A DNA stretch of 64,000 bases from an uncultured virus (IMG/VR IMGVR_UViG_3300014050_000019) (lineage: Duplodnaviria > Heunggongvirae > Uroviricota > Caudoviricetes). The stretch lies in IMG/VR virus record IMGVR_UViG_3300014050_000019. One strand, given 5' to 3'. A model generated the notes under the pieces. That model made no database searches, was not told where the DNA came from, and saw only the letters and a program-made list of their open reading frames with translations. Below are positions 156-16,800 of this stretch, one piece after another; positions within the stretch are counted from its first letter, which is position 1, and each line of letters begins with the position of its first letter. A program made the translations under genes and the position numbers.

Positions 156-2633
156 TTACCCCCTTATTCTTAAAATTGCGCTGCCAAGAATCACTTGACC
201 AACTAAAATTGCTGCTACTAAAACTTCCTTGGCTTTTTGTCTTTCTTGTGGACTCATATCTGCCCCAATATTTGCCAATGCCTTAAATACTTCACATTTT
301 TGCTCTTCGGTTAATCCTTCAATTGCTTCGTCTGGATTAAAACATCCCGCAATTGCATTTACTAATGCAGCAGGTGATTCTAATGTAAGTAATGCTGAAG
401 CAACTTCTGCTGTAATGACAACAGGATTTCCATTAATATCGGTTCTAACTTCTACTGGTATTTCGGGTGGAAGGTCACGATATTCAAGACCTGCCTCCGC
501 AATGGCTGATGCAGTTACTGGCTCACCATTTGAAGATTGAATTAATGCATCTGCAACTAATTCTTTTTCGGCAAGTGTAAACTTACCATCTGCTGTTAAT
601 GCTTCAGAAAGATTATTAACCTCAGAAGATGTTATTTCTCCGTCAGACATTAATGCATCTAATACTGCTTCTGCATCTGATGCTGTTAAATTTCCATCAC
701 TAATTAAATTTTCTACTACTGAAATAATTTCTTCTACAGTTAATGGTGTCTCTTCTGCAGGTGGCTCCACAGCAGGTGGCTCTTCTGCAGGTGGCTCTTC
801 TGCGGGTGGTTCCACAACTGGTGGTTCTTCTGCGGGTGGTTCCACAACTGGTGGTTCTTCTGCGGGTGGTTCCACAACTGGTGGCTCTTCTGCGGGTGGT
901 TCCACAACTGGTGGTTCTTCTGCGGGTGGTTGTACAACTGGTGGAAGATCTATTATAACTGGTGGTTGTGCAGGAGGATTAGCAATTAAATTTGAACTTT
1001 GAGTAGATGGTATAGAAACAATAGTTTCAGAATATTGACTTACTGGTCCAGACCAGTTAGCAATTCTTATTGAATATGTCGCTCCTTCTTCAAGTCCTGT
1101 GAGTTGTATAGACTCTGGGGCACCATCAGTATTTAATGTTTGTCCAGCATATGGGTTATCTGCATTTGGAGTAACTGCAACTACTTGATAAAACCAAGTG
1201 TTTGGTGTATATCCAGTTGGTAATTCTGGAGCAACTGTTACCGTAGTTCCCTGAACAATTGTTTCTGAAATAATTGGAGCAGGGGTAGGAATCTTATTAG
1301 ATATTGCAGTAGTTAATTCTTGAGAATTTGTGTTTAATTCTGTTTGTAAATTTGTTTTTGTATTAGAAATTGTATTTATTGAATTGTTTAAAGATGATAT
1401 ATTTGATGCAAGCGTGGCATTTGCAGCATTATTTATAGCATTTTGAGTAACTACTGGAGTTAAGCTTTGATTAAGTTGAGCAATAGTAGCATTTGCTGAG
1501 TCAACTGCGGCTTGAACAGATGATGTATTTGGATCAACATATGGAGTAAATGACGCACCTTGACTTATTTGTCCAGCAAATCCAGATCCAGGGTTATTGT
1601 CTGTAATTGGAATAACTGTCCCATTGTTTGTTTGTCTATAATTAAATCTTGCACCATTAGGAATTGGGCCAGTAGCACTGACATTTGCTATCCATGCACC
1701 ATCTGTTGGATTAACATCAGCATTAAATCTTATTTGAACCATCTGTGTAGAAGCATCCATTTGAGGATAAGGACGAACATCCCAAGCAATATCTAAACTT
1801 GTTCCAGTAGTTGCATATGTAATTCCTGTTCCAGTACTCCAGGTAGTCCAGTCCCAACCAGCAATAGAAACTGATGGTGCAGTCGGTGTCTGATAATAGA
1901 TCCACCCTTGGTCTACGCCAAAAGTTATTGTTGCATTTGATCCAACATATACGTTATTATATAAAGTTCCCCCCATTTGCATTCCAAATGGTAAATTCAT
2001 TCTTATTCCAGCATCATCTACTCCAGCCAATACGTTAGTGCTAGTTCCAATTGTTGCCTGTAAATTATTTACTGCTGTTTGAGCATTATCAATAGCAATA
2101 TTTGCTTGAGTTAATTCTGTTTGTGCTGTTGCTTGTGCTGCTACAGAAGCATTTCTTGCAACAACTACTTCTGATACTGCTGTTTGAACAGTTGATGTAT
2201 CTATATTATTTATTGCAGTTTGTGCTGTAGATACGGTTTGTTTAGCATCTTGAACTATTTGTGAATTTTGATCTACTGGAGTAACAGATAAATCTACTGC
2301 ATTAATTGTAGCTGTTGCTGTATCTACTGCAGCCACACTAGATTGAGCTGTACTAACTAATTGATTAACTTGGGATATAGCAGCAGAAGCTTCTACTCTT
2401 TCGGCCTGTGCAACAGATATTAAAGCTGTAGCAGTGTCTGTTGCTGCTATTGCTTGTTGAACTTCTGTTGTGGCGGTTGCAAGTGCCGTGTTAACAGCTT
2501 GTTGTGCAGGACTTACAACTACCTGTTCTGCTGGAGCTGGTGGCTCATCAGCATAAGAAGATGTTGGTCCAAAAATAAAAAGCCAGCCTACAACAATCAG
2601 GCTGGTTAGTAGGTATTTTGCCCTTCTAGTCAA
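156..2633 (-). CDS. secreted/membrane-anchored surface protein with Ala/Thr/Gln coiled coil, NIDO-like and FN3-like domains, and Pro-Glu repeats
   Basis: Signal-peptide-like N-terminus (..GPTSSYA|DE), NIDO-like DD..LPF....G..YN.VYVGSN segment, PPAEEPPVVE repeats, C-terminal hydrophobic helix plus RIRG. TTG start with AGGAG RBS. Confidence 0.65.
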   Translation of the reverse strand: MTRRAKYLLTSLIVVGWLFIFGPTSSYADEPPAPAEQVVVSPAQQAVNTALATATTEVQQAIAATDTATALISVAQAERVEASAAISQVNQLVSTAQSSVAAVDTATATINAVDLSVTPVDQNSQIVQDAKQTVSTAQTAINNIDTSTVQTAVSEVVVARNASVAAQATAQTELTQANIAIDNAQTAVNNLQATIGTSTNVLAGVDDAGIRMNLPFGMQMGGTLYNNVYVGSNATITFGVDQGWIYYQTPTAPSVSIAGWDWTTWSTGTGITYATTGTSLDIAWDVRPYPQMDASTQMVQIRFNADVNPTDGAWIANVSATGPIPNGARFNYRQTNNGTVIPITDNNPGSGFAGQISQGASFTPYVDPNTSSVQAAVDSANATIAQLNQSLTPVVTQNAINNAANATLASNISSLNNSINTISNTKTNLQTELNTNSQELTTAISNKIPTPAPIISETIVQGTTVTVAPELPTGYTPNTWFYQVVAVTPNADNPYAGQTLNTDGAPESIQLTGLEEGATYSIRIANWSGPVSQYSETIVSIPSTQSSNLIANPPAQPPVIIDLPPVVQPPAEEPPVVEPPAEEPPVVEPPAEEPPVVEPPAEEPPVVEPPAEEPPAEEPPAVEPPAEETPLTVEEIISVVENLISDGNLTASDAEAVLDALMSDGEITSSEVNNLSEALTADGKFTLAEKELVADALIQSSNGEPVTASAIAEAGLEYRDLPPEIPVEVRTDINGNPVVITAEVASALLTLESPAALVNAIAGCFNPDEAIEGLTEEQKCEVFKALANIGADMSPQERQKAKEVLVAAILVGQVILGSAILRIRG
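751..944. repeat. 30-bp tandem repeat encoding PPAEEPPVVE
   Basis: Five near-perfect copies of tcttctgcgggtggttccacaactggtggt at 796-944, plus degenerate copies at 751-795. Confidence 0.95.
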
Positions 2634-2714: not shown

Positions 2715-2900
2715 CTACTTTGGATTATCTGTTTTGTAAAAGCCACTGCCTTTAAACTGAATGCCAAATCCGCCATAGTGTCTTTGCAATCTCTTACCAC
2801 ATTCATTACACAAGTATGTTGGTTCTACAGAAGTTATTGATCTTTCTTTAGGGACTATACTATCTGGTGAACACTCACACTTATACTCGTAAATAGGCAT
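2715..2900 (-). CDS. FmdB-family zinc-ribbon protein
   Basis: MPIYEYKC..C...C..C and the FKGSGFYKTD signature. Confidence 0.85.
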   Translation of the reverse strand: MPIYEYKCECSPDSIVPKERSITSVEPTYLCNECGKRLQRHYGGFGIQFKGSGFYKTDNPK

Positions 2901-3307
2901 TACTTACCGCTCTTTTTTCTCTTTTCTGCTAAGGCTGCAAAATCTTTGACCTTAGTTTCTCCCATATATGACCATGCATAGCCATCTTCAATCATCTGTT
3001 CATTAACCGACTTTGTATTGCCATCAATATAGACCCAGCCAAGTATTCTTCCATACTTCTCTGAACTGTCTGGTTTTTCTGTCTTTACAACTATTTCTTT
3101 AGCATCTTTAAACTTATACTTCAAATAATCTTTTGCTTCAATTCCCAAACTTTTTTCAAACTTATCTGAGGTTCTAGATTCTGGAGTATCAATCCCAGCC
3201 AATCTTAATCTTTGAGAATAGGAGATGCTGAATCCAAGATCGATATCAACATCAATGGTGTCTCCGTCCACTATTTTTGTGACTTGCTTAACTCTGTATT
3301 CAAACAT
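2900..3307 (-). CDS. thermonuclease (SNase-like) family protein
   Basis: VDGDTIDV, RLRLAGIDTPES and KYGRILG motifs. Confidence 0.9.
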   Translation of the reverse strand: MFEYRVKQVTKIVDGDTIDVDIDLGFSISYSQRLRLAGIDTPESRTSDKFEKSLGIEAKDYLKYKFKDAKEIVVKTEKPDSSEKYGRILGWVYIDGNTKSVNEQMIEDGYAWSYMGETKVKDFAALAEKRKKSGK

Positions 3308-3423: not shown

Positions 3424-3849
3424 TTATTTGACCTTAATAGTCTTAGGCTTTTTCTCTTCTGGTAGAATGCGTACAATATCAATCTTAAGCATTCCATCCT
3501 TTAGTTCCGCAGCCTTTACTTCCATATACTCACCAAGGGCCCACTCACGAGTAAATTTACGGGCAGCAATTCCACGGTGGATAAACTTCGAATCGTTATC
3601 CTCTGTGTTTAATTCTCCCTTTACGGTAAGTTTGCCATCTGCTGTTGATACATCAATATCTGTTTTACTAAAACCAGCAACGGCTAATTCGACAACAAAA
3701 TTGTCTTCGTCTACCTTGATTACATTATATGGCGGATAGTTAGTTGCGCTAGATACATTTTGAACATGATTCCATGTATCTAAAGCCCTATCAAATCCAA
3801 TAAAAAATGGGTCCTTGAAAAGGTCCCATGCGAAATGTGTTGTTACCAT
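3424..3849 (-). CDS. hsp20: small heat shock protein, Hsp20/IbpA family
   Basis: NYPPYNV, ELAVAGF, HRGIAARKFTR and LKDGMLKI motifs. Confidence 0.95.
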   Translation of the reverse strand: MVTTHFAWDLFKDPFFIGFDRALDTWNHVQNVSSATNYPPYNVIKVDEDNFVVELAVAGFSKTDIDVSTADGKLTVKGELNTEDNDSKFIHRGIAARKFTREWALGEYMEVKAAELKDGMLKIDIVRILPEEKKPKTIKVK

Positions 3850-3850
3850 T

Positions 3851-3907
3851 TTATTCCTCCTTCAAGCGAATAAGTTAATTTGTGTGGGTCCCTGACGGCG
3901 ACCCACA
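3851..3907 (-). promoter_or_regulatory. ROSE-like RNA thermometer in hsp20 5' UTR
   Basis: UUAUUC-G-CUU-gaag-GAG-GAAUAA hairpin pairs UCGCU with the Shine-Dalgarno, preceded by a TGTGGGTC/GACCCACA hairpin. Confidence 0.65.
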
Positions 3908-3910
3908 TAT

Positions 3911-3939
3911 ATTATACCAAATTATATTTTGAATTACAA
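3911..3939 (-). promoter_or_regulatory. sigma70/SigA-type promoter for hsp20
   Basis: TTGTAA-17-TATAAT with TG extension. Confidence 0.7.
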
Positions 3940-4118: not shown

Positions 4119-4568
4119 CTAATTAATTGTTTGCTTTAAGCTAGATCGTAACCACCAGCCCCAGAACTCGTGCTTATCTTGACGATCTGCCAAGAAATTT
4201 GCAAGGCCCTGCTCCTTTTGAAGAGTTGCTTCATCAAACATTACTTTGATATCAGAAATCATTTTATCATTCATTGTCAATAGTTGTCTTGTCATTGATA
4301 CTGGAGAATTAGAATCTAGCTGAACATCTCCATAATTATTATTAGAAATAAAATCTGTAAGAGTATAAGGAGCAACAACATCAAACTTTCTCAACCATTC
4401 TGAAATTGTATCAATTGTGTCATCAATATCTTCATAAATTTCTTTAAAAAATGCATGGTATTGTGTAAATAATGGACCCTCTACGTTCCAATGAAATCCA
4501 TGTGCTGTGCTTTTAAATACAACAGAATTTGCCTGCCATGTTTTAAGCATATTAATTAATCTATCCAT
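4119..4568 (-). CDS. dps: Dps-family ferritin-like protein
   Basis: HGFHWNVEGPLF...H.FF.E.Y......D...E ferroxidase pattern and C-terminal W.LRS. Confidence 0.9.
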   Translation of the reverse strand: MDRLINMLKTWQANSVVFKSTAHGFHWNVEGPLFTQYHAFFKEIYEDIDDTIDTISEWLRKFDVVAPYTLTDFISNNNYGDVQLDSNSPVSMTRQLLTMNDKMISDIKVMFDEATLQKEQGLANFLADRQDKHEFWGWWLRSSLKQTIN

Positions 4569-4897: not shown

Positions 4898-4909
4898 TAT
4901 TCTCCTTTG

Positions 4910-4983
4910 TGCAACAGGTAGGACTTGAACCTACGATAGCCGAATTATGAGTTCGGGGCCTTAACCAACTTGGCTACTGTTGC
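4910..4983 (-). tRNA. tRNA with CAT anticodon (Ile2/lysidine type or elongator Met); CCA not encoded
   Basis: Cloverleaf: acceptor GCAACAG/CTGTTGC, D arm GCC/GGC, anticodon arm CCGAA-CTCATAA-TTCGG, T arm GTAGG-TTCAAGT-CCTAC. Confidence 0.92.
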
Positions 4984-13894: not shown

Positions 13895-16800
13895 TTTATT
13901 TCCTTAATCATCAGGGTGCCGTCATCCAATTTGGATAAAATTACCTGACACTTCATTCCCTCACGCATTTTTGCTAAGGCGATCTTATACATACTAGAGA
14001 AAACAATTGCTCTAGTTAAATTTTTATCTTTATCTGATAATACTATATGTGCCATAGTTTTACCAGCTTTTGTTTTATATGGAGTAAAATCTACTACAAT
14101 ATATTCTTTTTCATTTAAATCATATTCTTTTCTATATAAAAAGTCGACAAACGTATCTTTAGATTGAGGGTTAATGTCTTGAACCTTTACATACTTTGCA
14201 ATTCTATTATCTCCAACTAAAATAAAATACATCTGTCCAGTTTCTATAGTAGTTTGTTCATTATGAAATAAACCTATAGCGCCAGTTTCATCAACAAGTT
14301 CTACTCTGGCCCAACCAGTTCCTCTTTTAATTGACTTTACCATTCCAAACATAACGAATGCTCCTAAATCATCAAAGTCTGATATTGGACGTGCTTGAGA
14401 TTTAATTCTTGGAGGAAGATCTAAATTGAATGTAGGTATTCCTAAATATTCATAGTAGCTTTCTTTTTCTTTACCACTTCTAACATTGTCTTCAAATGCT
14501 GCTCCACCGATTGCGTTAAGTGCTGACACCGCTCTGCTATTAATACCGCTACCCTTGGCAGAAGCTTTTTGTATAAAATCGGCATAATCTAAATAAGGAC
14601 GTTTATCAATAATTTTATTTGCAATACTATCTGATATATATTTTACTTCTGCTAAACCAAATCTAATAGCATCTTTTTGTAAAGAAAAATATATATCCGA
14701 TTCATTAATATGTGGCAAAAGTACTTTTAGCCCAAGTCTTTTAGCTTCAATTAAATATTCCGTACGAACATCTTTATCATTTTCATTTTTAAGAATTGAA
14801 AACATAAACTCAAGAGGGTAATACTTTTTGAGCCAAGCCGTATAATAAGAGAGCATAGAATAAGCAACGGCGTGAGAGCGATTAAAAGAATAACCAGCAT
14901 GAGCTTCAAAATCATGCCAAAGGTGCTGGGCTTGCTTTTTACTAATATGCTTCTCAGCCCCTTCAATAAACTTATCTTTGAATTGATCGAATTCTTTTGC
15001 ATCTTTCTTCTTTCCAATAATTTTACGAACCTTGTCAGCCTCTGACCAAGTCATCCCGCCAAGGTGTACGCATGCTTGCATAACTTGTTCTTGATAAATA
15101 ATAACCCCGTATGTATTTTCTGTAAATGGTTTCATAATTGGGTGTACGTACTGAACCGCTTCCTGCCCATGCTTACGTTTAATATAAGAAGCTCCCACAG
15201 TATTCATTGCACCTGGACGAACTAGAGCATTTGATGCCGCTAAATCTTCAAATTTATCTACACCCATTTTAATAAGTAAATTTGTATAAGGCGTTGCTTC
15301 AGCCTGAAATATACCTTTTGTATATCCTTCGCTAAGAGTTTTATAAACTTCTTTATCATCTAGAGGTAATTCTGAAAGAACAATATCTTTGCCTGTGCGA
15401 TCTTTAATAGACTTTAAAGTGTCAGAAATAACAGAAAGAGTTTTAAGTCCGAGGGCGTCCAGTTTAATCAAACCAATATCAGCTACAGTATCCATGTCAT
15501 ATGCGACAACTGGAATTCTTCCAGATACTTGATCCTGAGCATCTTCACGAGATTCTACTGGTGCATACTTTCTAATATCATCTTTGGCTACAACAACGCC
15601 AGCAGCATGAACCCCAACGGATCGGATCTTGCCACGTAAACGTTCTGCTAACCATACAATTTCTGGATATTTAATCCTAAACTCTTTTGTATTTGGCGAC
15701 TCTATAAAATCTTCAAATGTGTCAATTGATTTCATTGCACGATTAACATCAGACAATGGAACCATAAACACACGAGCAGCATCTCTAATTACACCCTTAT
15801 CTTTAAAATAAGTGTAGGTAGAAATAGAAGCCACATGCTTAAACTTTTTCTTTAAATAATCTTTAACCTCTTTACGGCGGCGGTCTTCAAAGTCAGTATC
15901 AATATCAGGAAAGTCATTACGCTCAGGGTTAATAAAACGGAAGAACAATAAATCATATTCAATTGGGTCTACATCTGTAATTCCAAGGGAATAGCAGACT
16001 AGGGAGCCTGCAGCAGAACCACGACCAGGGCCAACCATAATATTGTTATCCTTAGCCCAATTAACCATATCTGCTACAACTAAGAAATATGAGGCAAATG
16101 ATTTATCTTTAATTATAGATAACTCTTCCTCAAGCCTGTCCATATAGACCTTATCTTTGTCCAGAGATAGGCGTTTAAGGCCTTCTAAGGCCATCTGAGC
16201 CAGTTTCTGGTCAGCATTGGTCTTCGGTACAGGGAGAAGATCTAGCCCACTGTTAAAATCGTATTCTCCAATTTTAGAGGCTATCTCCATAGTATTATCA
16301 AATATATCTGTTCTCTCTATGCCAGCTTTTTTAAAGTCCGCCTCTATTTCAGCTCTAGTCTGAATAAATAGGTTATAGTCTACAAATGATATTTTTCTGT
16401 CAGGATAAAGATAGTTAAATCTATCTAACATATCTTTCATTTGACGAGACATTTCAAAGTCTGCTTCTTTATCTGCTTTTGGGGATGTAGATAGAATAAG
16501 CATGGCCTCTTCTAATATACGATCTTCTTCTTTGGCAAAGTGAGCATCTCCTGTTGCCACCGCCTTAATTTTAAGTTCATCTGCTAGCGATAGCAATCCT
16601 TCATTTATTTCTTTTGGATTATGAGACTGGACCTCAATATAAAAATCTTCACCGAAGGTTTTCTTAAAATCTTTAAGAATAAGTTTGGCTTCAGAGAACT
16701 CATTCTTTTCAATACATTTAGAAATAAGACCGTTAAGGCATCCAGATAACACAATAATGCCTTCCGCATATTCTTTAAGAATTTCTCTGTCAATACGTGG

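Follow-up and report, generated by a model that had tools for sequence, protein, structure and literature searches.

The hsp20 gene of an uncultured virus, described here as a siphovirus-like freshwater phage, is preceded by a short leader in which two hairpins follow each other and the second one hides the Shine–Dalgarno (SD) sequence directly before the AUG. The analyzed stretch of 64,000 nucleotides (IMG/VR record IMGVR_UViG_3300014050_000019) is referred to as the window. Comparison with phage and cellular relatives confirmed that this is a conserved, ROSE-like two-hairpin leader and not a chance structure; it is a known kind of leader in a viral setting. The explanation that we consider rather probable is that of a short ROSE-like RNA thermometer, by analogy with the ibpA leader of Pseudomonas. 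On the basis of this analogy, we infer that the leader senses temperature and that its second hairpin melts within the temperature range of the host, with an effect on translation.

Structure of the hsp20 leader

All leader features are read on the minus strand of the window. They are, from the promoter to the gene:

3934..3939, minus strand: −35-like hexamer TTGTAA (promoter scan), overlapping the TAA stop codon (3936..3934) of an upstream open reading frame (ORF) of 58 aa
3911..3919, minus strand: extended −10 element TG-n-TATAAT (promoter scan), with TG at 3919..3918 and TATAAT at 3916..3911
3883..3907, minus strand: hairpin 1 (RNAfold), with a GC-rich lower stem of 8 bp, the bulged G3899, a CC/GG upper stem and the loop GUCA
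3874..3882, minus strand: A/U-rich spacer of 9 nt, single-stranded in the fold
3851..3873, minus strand: hairpin 2, the proposed thermosensor, composed of UUAUUC, the bulged G3867, CUU, the loop GAAG, GAG and GAAUAA
3424..3849, minus strand: hsp20, 141 aa, start codon at 3849..3847 (Pfam PF00011 HSP20, 1.5e-19)

The minimum free energy (MFE) structure of the leader (RNAfold, −22.5 kcal/mol) consists of exactly these two hairpins, and none of 200 shuffled sequences folded as well (average −11.8 ± 2.5 kcal/mol, z −4.2). For hairpin 1, a free energy of −16.6 kcal/mol was predicted at 37 °C; by eye, no convincing pairing of this hairpin with the SD or the anti-SD sequence was found. In hairpin 2, the anti-SD sequence U3869-C-[G3867]-C-U3865 pairs with AGGA (A3858..A3855) of the SD sequence GGAGG (3860..3856), the first G of which (3860) is located in the loop GAAG (3863..3860). 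In the MFE structure as well as in the centroid structure, G3867 is predicted to stand unpaired with a base pair on either side. The lower stem of hairpin 2 (6 bp, A/U) ends 2 nt before the AUG, leaving a single A between hairpin and start codon. Imperfect pairing of U(U/C)GCU with the SD sequence is the consensus by which ROSE elements are defined in the accessible text of two studies (PMC11342760, PMC3669281). Within the window, this motif in the bulged-G register with the GG of an SD sequence was found at one of 80 ORF starts on the minus strand, namely that of hsp20, and at 11 of 2383 ATGs on both strands.

The hsp20 product matches PHROG 432 ("Hsp20 heat shock protein") at 1.2e-41 and belongs to the IbpA type of Hsp20 proteins. 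It carries the NYPPYN motif, in which Y38, P39, P40, Y41, and N42 are invariant and N37 is present in at least 90% of the aligned sequences. The leader is therefore located directly upstream of a small heat-shock (Hsp20/IbpA) gene, as is expected of a ROSE-like element.

The promoter TTGTAA-17 nt-TG-n-TATAAT (3939..3911) matches the sigma-70 consensus at 10 of 12 positions and has the additional TG. Judged by consensus matching, it is not of the sigma-32 (RpoH) type. A transcription start at about 3905..3903, within the base of hairpin 1, is predicted from the −10 spacing alone, and the transcript would accordingly carry hairpin 1 at its 5′ end. In one freshwater metatranscriptome study, the stretch is contained in four runs, but as contigs only; since such contigs are silent on transcription, strand and 5′ end, they have no bearing on the start site. 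The contigs from these freshwater RNA libraries break inside the leader (window positions ~3852–3881). One of them continues past 3881 with another variant of hairpin 1 (GGAUGCCC...GGGGUCC type), so that leader variants co-occur in one sample.

The sequence-only reading from which this analysis started had placed the element at 3851–3916, which is right for the section from the −10 box through hairpin 2, with the minus strand as the strand concerned. It had described the fold of hairpin 2 including the bulged G and the hidden SD sequence, and RNAfold returned the same structure; the stable GC-rich hairpin that it had seen upstream was found at 3907..3883. Its housekeeping-type promoter also held, as a sigma-70 extended −10 promoter by consensus match that is kept in all close relatives (see below).

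Conservation and covariation

Relatives of the phage hsp20 gene were collected in scans of viral contigs. The first scan covered the best 80 of 100 relatives (84–99% protein identity, 41 unique leaders). A second scan started from the Hsp20 of HTVC115P, a cultured Pelagibacter phage, and covered the best 80 of at least 593 relatives (99–42% identity, 64 unique leaders). With L048 as query (270 relatives listed), nearly all contigs were already among those of the earlier scans. In addition, 80 cellular homologues with 39–58% identity to the Hsp20 of the window were obtained by scanning one genome per prokaryotic species.

The U(U/C)GCU motif in the bulged-G register was present in 41 of 41 unique leaders of the close relatives. 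In the set obtained with HTVC115P, the motif occurred at −40..−8 in 59 and in the bulged-G register in 58 of 64 unique leaders. Overall, 99 of the 105 unique phage leaders and 55 of the 74 cellular ones have both motif and register, and both UCGCU and UUGCU occur, matching the ROSE consensus. The MFE structure at 37 °C shows the bulged-G register in 68 of 91 unique phage leaders. An anchor-based tally of 165 unique phage and cellular leaders counted 142 in which hairpin 1, too, has a bulged G with a C after it. The spacer between the hairpins has a median length of 9 nt (range 1–37, 142 unique leaders with both hairpins found), and the two bulged Gs are mostly 27–34 nt apart.

Among the close relatives, the upstream genes differ (tRNA genes and several unrelated ORFs), and the module is kept from the extended −10 element onward; the −35 hexamer TTGTAA is not conserved in these different contexts. 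Because of the varied upstream contexts, the unit of promoter, leader, and hsp20 looks as if it had been moved as a cassette. Hairpin 1 varies in sequence and keeps its shape, and hairpin 2 is nearly invariant. Across the lineages, the lower stem of hairpin 2 consists of differing, yet complementary sequences (UUAUUC/GAAUAA, UAACUU/GAGUUA, AUAAC/GUUAU); with 6 bp in the lineage of the window and 3 bp in most marine relatives, its extension is lineage-specific and not universal.

A covariance model (R2), built from 20 phage and cellular leaders, recognized the leader at E ≤ 0.01 in 78 of the 92 unique loci from phages and in 50 of the 73 unique loci from cellular genomes. Every match was located upstream of hsp20 on the strand of the gene, with a single match in the 64-kb window. 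When 74 distinct phage leaders were aligned by R2, 95.0% of the cells were paired, as compared to 74.3% in shuffled alignments (0 of 500 reached the observed value). The covariation score was 0.557 versus 0.202 in the shuffled alignments and 0.04–0.13 with slid partners. An alignment fitted to the model favors the structure, and the slid controls and the anchor-based tally point the same way. In hairpin 1, both partners changed in eight of nine pairs, a single position showing as many as six types of pair, and 95.2% of the cells were paired. In hairpin 2, the pair just below the SD core alternates between C-G (33 rows) and U-A (30 rows), and the SD core itself varies on one side only (U-A to U-G). 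Covariation in phage hsp20 leaders, which the sequence-only reading had named as a check, is thus strong in hairpin 1, and the pairing of UCGCU with the SD sequence, whose loss among homologues would have contradicted that reading, turned out to be conserved.

Two alignments and one model were discarded. A plain MAFFT alignment gave 0 pairs in RNAalifold because the 3′ arms had been shifted, and another misaligned alignment was dropped as well. Model R1, built from nine near-identical leaders, was too narrow, since at E ≤ 0.01 it found the window, 32 close relatives and three other leaders; its additional match at 15265..15308 (E 0.014) lies inside the DNA polymerase ORF and was taken as chance.

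Two of the register exceptions in the HTVC115P set (L144:279-554 and L135:288-587) have a two-hairpin leader about 250 nt further upstream, before an ORF of 71–79 aa that precedes hsp20. The products of these two ORFs are alike, and the leader would control a two-gene operon in these phages. In L244 (76-133), the R2 match is also located well upstream of hsp20.

Promoters and cellular homologues

The extended −10 element (TGnTATAAT/TGnTAnAAT) is present in all 41 unique window-like leaders, and the promoter of HTVC115P reads TTGACA-17-TATAAT. The sigma-32 consensus has been given as CTTGAA-N13-18-CNCCATAT in the accessible text of PMC3669281. With a strict pattern of this type, no match was obtained in the phage leaders (0/41 and 0/64, i.e., 0/105), compared with 23 of 74 cellular leaders. 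A TTGACA...CCCCATAT-like hybrid that the strict pattern passes over was noted by eye in L134 and L155. Judged by consensus matches, the promoter sequences fit the assumption that the RNA leader may be the remaining heat-sensing layer in the phage.

The cellular homologues stem mostly from SAR11 single-cell genomes and metagenome-assembled genomes (MAGs), but also from SAR86, PS1, Rhodobiaceae, Woeseiaceae, Methylococcaceae, and GC-rich alphaproteobacteria. In the A/T-rich marine representatives, the same two bulged-G hairpins with a CUUGCUU...AAGGAG core are located behind sigma-32-type promoters (CTTGAA-N-CCCCAyAT). The GC-rich homologues show the classical ROSE form (...CAACGCUU..AGGAGGUUG...). 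The phage lineage most likely acquired the leader together with the hsp20 gene.

The closest "cellular" Hsp20 (58% identity) is encoded on L243, a 3.8-kb contig of a MAG labelled Methylococcus. This contig has a tRNA 3′ end, the TGATATAAT box, and both the leader and the promoter of the phage type, and is probably phage DNA binned into the MAG.

Comparison with known thermometers

The closest known family is the short two-hairpin ibpA leader of Pseudomonas (Rfam ROSE_3). It and the leader of the window are both about 60 nt long, precede an IbpA-type small heat-shock gene and have a stable, GC-rich hairpin I whose bulged G is followed by CC; next come an A/U spacer and a hairpin II in which U(U/C)GCU is imperfectly paired with the SD sequence, and the AUG is outside the hairpin. 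Unlike the Pseudomonas element, hairpin 2 of the window is A/U-rich with a 6-bp lower stem and has no flanking G-C pairs; moreover, the window leader is phage-borne, follows a sigma-70 extended −10 promoter instead of a sigma-32 promoter and has no ROSE_3 match. As far as the accessible text of Krajewski et al. (2013; PMC3669281) goes, the Pseudomonas leader has a length of 61–62 nt and forms two hairpins. Hairpin II, which suffices for thermoregulation, opens in the range from 25 to 42 °C. Hairpin I is closed up to 50 °C and was proposed to serve as a folding aid and 5′-terminal stabilizer of the mRNA; deletion of the G together with the exchange U38C locked the helix and fixed repression (PMC3669281). 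In the searched text of this paper, the bulged G of hairpin 1 is not mentioned (0 occurrences of "bulged" and of "conserved G"). For a different ROSE-like stem, a crystal structure is described in the accessible part of PMC11342760, in which the G bulges out and weakens the stacking.

Classical rhizobial ROSE elements (RF00435) resemble the window leader in the anti-SD sequence U(U/C)GCU or CGCUU, the bulged G opposite the SD sequence and the position upstream of hsp20-family genes. They are 70–120 nt long, and their last hairpin includes the AUG, which is outside the hairpin in the window. Three to four hairpins are reported for them in the accessible text of PMC3669281, compared with two in about 60 nt in the window. 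The leaders of SAR11, SAR86, PS1, and other proteobacterial ibpA-type genes (L243-L322) have the same two bulged-G hairpins and spacing as the window and are recognized by R2 at the rate given above; they differ in their sigma-32-type promoters and in the low identity of the encoded proteins to that of the window (39–58%).

The lambda cIII thermometer (Rfam Lambda_thermo) is a phage RNA structure around the ribosome-binding site (RBS) with a temperature-dependent conformation. It adopts two alternative structures and is translated at physiological temperature and repressed at high temperature, which is the opposite logic. No likeness in sequence or structure to the window leader was found, and the leader scans gave no match to this Rfam family. 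The Synechocystis hsp17 thermometer is not known to have the U(U/C)GCU motif or a bulged G. Like the window leader, it is a short leader belonging to a gene for a small heat-shock protein and hides the SD sequence, but it consists of a single hairpin (PMC3669281, accessible text).

Rfam searches and predicted thermal behavior

Several results weigh against the interpretation as a ROSE-type thermometer. The Rfam models ROSE (RF00435), ROSE_2 (RF01832), and ROSE_3 (RF02523), with gathering scores of 45, 65, and 43 bits, respectively, did not match the 85-nt leader or the 1 kb around it at E ≤ 10, and the Infernal search that the sequence-only reading had proposed as a check was therefore negative for the window. 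No ROSE match at E ≤ 5 was obtained in 15 loci (14 window-like loci and that of HTVC115P, L081), ROSE_3 as the only model searched there gave none in the 92%-alike virus record G001, and none of the 35 scanned phage loci reached a gathering score. In 23 of 91 unique phage leaders, the bulged-G register is missing from the MFE structure at 37 °C; the G is paired in 17 of them, mostly with the C after GGAG, and the other six fold otherwise. The pairs of the SD core are unable to covary, so that hairpin 2 draws its support from the flanks and from the conservation of the motif.

Further points of this kind come from the nearest-neighbor model, which gives hairpin 2 a free energy of −8.3 (15 °C), −6.6 (25 °C), −4.6 (37 °C), and −1.2 kcal/mol (60 °C). 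The SD core is predicted to be 1–5% unpaired between 15 and 50 °C; its paired share exceeds 95% at temperatures up to 45 °C and is still about 95% at 50 °C. Hairpin 2 of the window is the most stable one computed, with six relatives ranging from −0.7 to −2.9 kcal/mol at 37 °C (HTVC115P −1.8, one SAR11 gene −1.6, the freshwater variant L041 −0.7 kcal/mol). If the leader is a thermometer, its set point may thus lie above lake temperatures, or it may act as a graded damper only. The cost of opening the RBS ranks 16–18 among the 80 ORFs of the window, which is above the median and not extreme; with this moderate rank, the case rests on conservation and not on an exceptional energy. The opening-cost ranking replaced the mean unpaired probability over −14..−6, a metric ill-suited here because the hairpin loop falls inside this section. 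Deletion of the bulged G in silico closed the SD sequence completely. Because of the simple treatment of bulges in the model and because ribosome binding shifts the equilibrium, the energies neither prove nor exclude a switch in the ecological temperature range, and a constitutive damper would also be compatible with them.

Sub-threshold similarity to ROSE_3 was detected in more distant relatives. ROSE_3 was the best RNA family at the leader in six of 20 such phage loci (39.9, 27.6, 25.4, 22.8, 21.5, and 20.5 bits), the highest score being that of L145 (39.9 bits, E 5e-05; cut-off 43). In the cellular loci it was the best family in three of 20 (29.9, 26.8, and 23.5 bits, all sub-threshold); one further cellular locus, from a GC-rich homologue, reached 28.5 bits with ROSE and another 23.5 bits with ROSE_2, both sub-threshold as well. 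The "freshwater-2" match (12.2 bits versus 49.9) was regarded as noise, as were matches to L20-leader and miRNA families. The ROSE_3 consensus, with a hairpin I of 8 + 3 bp, a bulged G before CC, a spacer and a hairpin II of the form ACUCGCU...AGGAG, agrees with the architecture in the window. Since the architecture is shared and a ROSE_3 match is absent, the window leader was classed with the short ROSE-like elements as a divergent representative, and the Rfam score does not make it a member. Taken together, the earlier interpretation of a ROSE-like thermometer behind a housekeeping promoter is partly supported.

Alternative explanations

The leader might be an inherited constitutive translational damper combined with a 5′ mRNA stabilizer, which would provide a low and steady Hsp20 level and a long mRNA life and would not sense temperature in the host range. 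The predicted pairing of at least 95% of the SD sequence up to 50 °C would suit such a role, as would the lengthening of the lower stem in this lineage to 6 bp, compared with 3 bp in most marine relatives, and the placement of hairpin 1, judged from the promoter spacing, like a 5′-terminal stabilizing stem-loop, a role suggested in the accessible text of PMC3669281. However, the occupancy of any RBS hairpin in the range of −8 to −4 kcal/mol shifts with temperature, and the helix-weakening bulged G and U-G pairs, which a simple damper does not need, are kept in nearly all lineages. Close structural counterparts are also proven thermometers (PMC3669281, accessible text). We regard the damper as rather unlikely. 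It is improbable that the hairpins instead bind a trans-acting factor (a small RNA, or an RNA-binding protein of host or phage) that gates translation or decay, with the bulged-G modules as recognition elements. The two hairpins do share the geometry of stem, bulged G, C, and short upper stem, the distance of the bulged Gs clusters at 27–34 nt, and G-C is nearly invariant (142/165 unique leaders) even in hairpin 1, which lacks an SD sequence. Yet no candidate factor was identified, ROSE elements are said to work in vitro without accessory factors in work of Chowdhury and colleagues from 2006, and hairpin II alone is sufficient in Pseudomonas (PMC3669281, accessible text).

At the DNA level, hairpin 1 could be an operator, i.e., a CIRCE-like inverted repeat with a 9-nt spacer, through which a host repressor such as HrcA would control transcription. 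Hairpin 1 of L041 and L045 matches the consensus TTAGCACTC-N9-GAGTGCTAA at 16 of 18 positions, and no other site in the 660 kb of fetched loci matches as well. Hairpin 1 is located between the −10 box and the RBS, the usual position of CIRCE, and the stem in the window has 7-nt arms around a 9-nt center, too. Its arms, however, match only about 6 of 18 consensus positions by eye, and the window contains no site with five or fewer mismatches. Across lineages the arm sequence changes freely while the pairing is kept, which is the signature of an RNA stem and not of a protein operator, and we consider an operator very improbable for the window. A chance structure in an A/T-rich leader with a strong SD sequence is hardly conceivable: the helix is short and anti-SD-like pentamers in register are not rare (11/2383 window ATGs), but the arrangement is kept in most unique leaders (99/105 from phages, 55/74 cellular), the covariation is far above the controls and the fold has a z of −4.2. 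The comparative data contradict this explanation. The short ROSE-like thermometer remains the reading that we prefer.

In the freshwater sister lineage itself (L041:1447-1473 and L045:1447-1473, = L169 and L170), the CIRCE-like repeat is located between the TGATATAAT box and the SD hairpin, and a neighboring lineage (L048 and others) matches 13 of 18 CIRCE consensus positions. The phage hsp20 gene of the L041/L045 lineage may also be under the control of the host HrcA.

Genomic context of hsp20

The window is phage DNA, with genes for terminase, portal, head protease, major head protein, tape measure, tail proteins, DNA polymerase, primase, and helicase. Its ORFs of at least 120 aa (n = 45) are all encoded on the minus strand except for two that lie inside longer minus-strand ORFs. 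The two genes flanking hsp20 (4119-4568 and 2900-3307, both minus strand) encode a Dps/ferritin-like protein (Pfam Ferritin, 2.4e-13) and a staphylococcal-nuclease-like protein (SNase, 4.2e-17); together with hsp20, they form a small stress or auxiliary gene cluster adjoining the terminase. An ORF of 825 aa (156-2633, minus strand) has a hydrophobic N-terminus and a run of PPVVEPPAEE-type repeats and matched no PHROG. A tRNA-Met (CAT) gene is located near hsp20 (4909-4983, minus strand), and in several relatives (L011, L015, and L043 among them) the hsp20 promoter follows immediately after one to four tRNA genes.

Proposed function and implications

In the proposed mechanism, the hsp20 mRNA would start at or just inside the stable 5′ hairpin 1, followed by the weaker hairpin 2. 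At low temperature, hairpin 2 would keep the 30S subunit off the ribosome-binding site; upon warming, it would open gradually, and Hsp20 synthesis would rise. Hairpin 1 would stay unmelted, aid folding and protect the 5′ end from decay. With an extended −10 promoter of the sigma-70 type in place of a sigma-32 promoter, the RNA leader would be the sole heat-sensing layer left.

A broader reading is possible, although we hold it to be rather doubtful as a whole. According to it, phages that infect abundant freshwater and marine proteobacteria captured the ibpA gene of the host together with its thermometer and then swapped the sigma-32 promoter for a housekeeping promoter, so that the mRNA would be made in every infection and the leader alone would gate translation by temperature. 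Such a virus-borne heat sensor would work without protein, and each lineage would have tuned it via the length of the lower stem, which is 3 bp in the marine phages resembling HTVC115P and 6 bp in the lake phage. The bulged-G module of hairpin 1 would, in all short ROSE leaders, have a function of its own beyond that of a stabilizing stem.

A full-text literature search, with subscription journals outside its coverage, revealed no paper describing a ROSE-like element on a phage gene or in SAR11 and no printed description of the marine SAR11/SAR86/PS1 ibpA-type leaders. The accessible text of two papers that mention pelagiphage hsp20 (PMC12361551, PMC9004378) treats it as an auxiliary gene and does not mention thermometers. 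Although hsp20 is among the commonest auxiliary genes of aquatic phages, its control is undiscussed in the literature searched. A large A/U-rich branch of the family, that of SAR11, SAR86 and their phages, escapes the Rfam ROSE models; a broader, R2-like model would annotate it. Because the leader is carried by the cultured pelagiphage HTVC115P, its function is testable, and the promoter swap would offer a natural experiment that separates the transcriptional from the translational layer of heat-shock control. Should the leader function like its Pseudomonas counterpart, viruses of highly abundant bacteria would possess a simple temperature switch that needs no protein.

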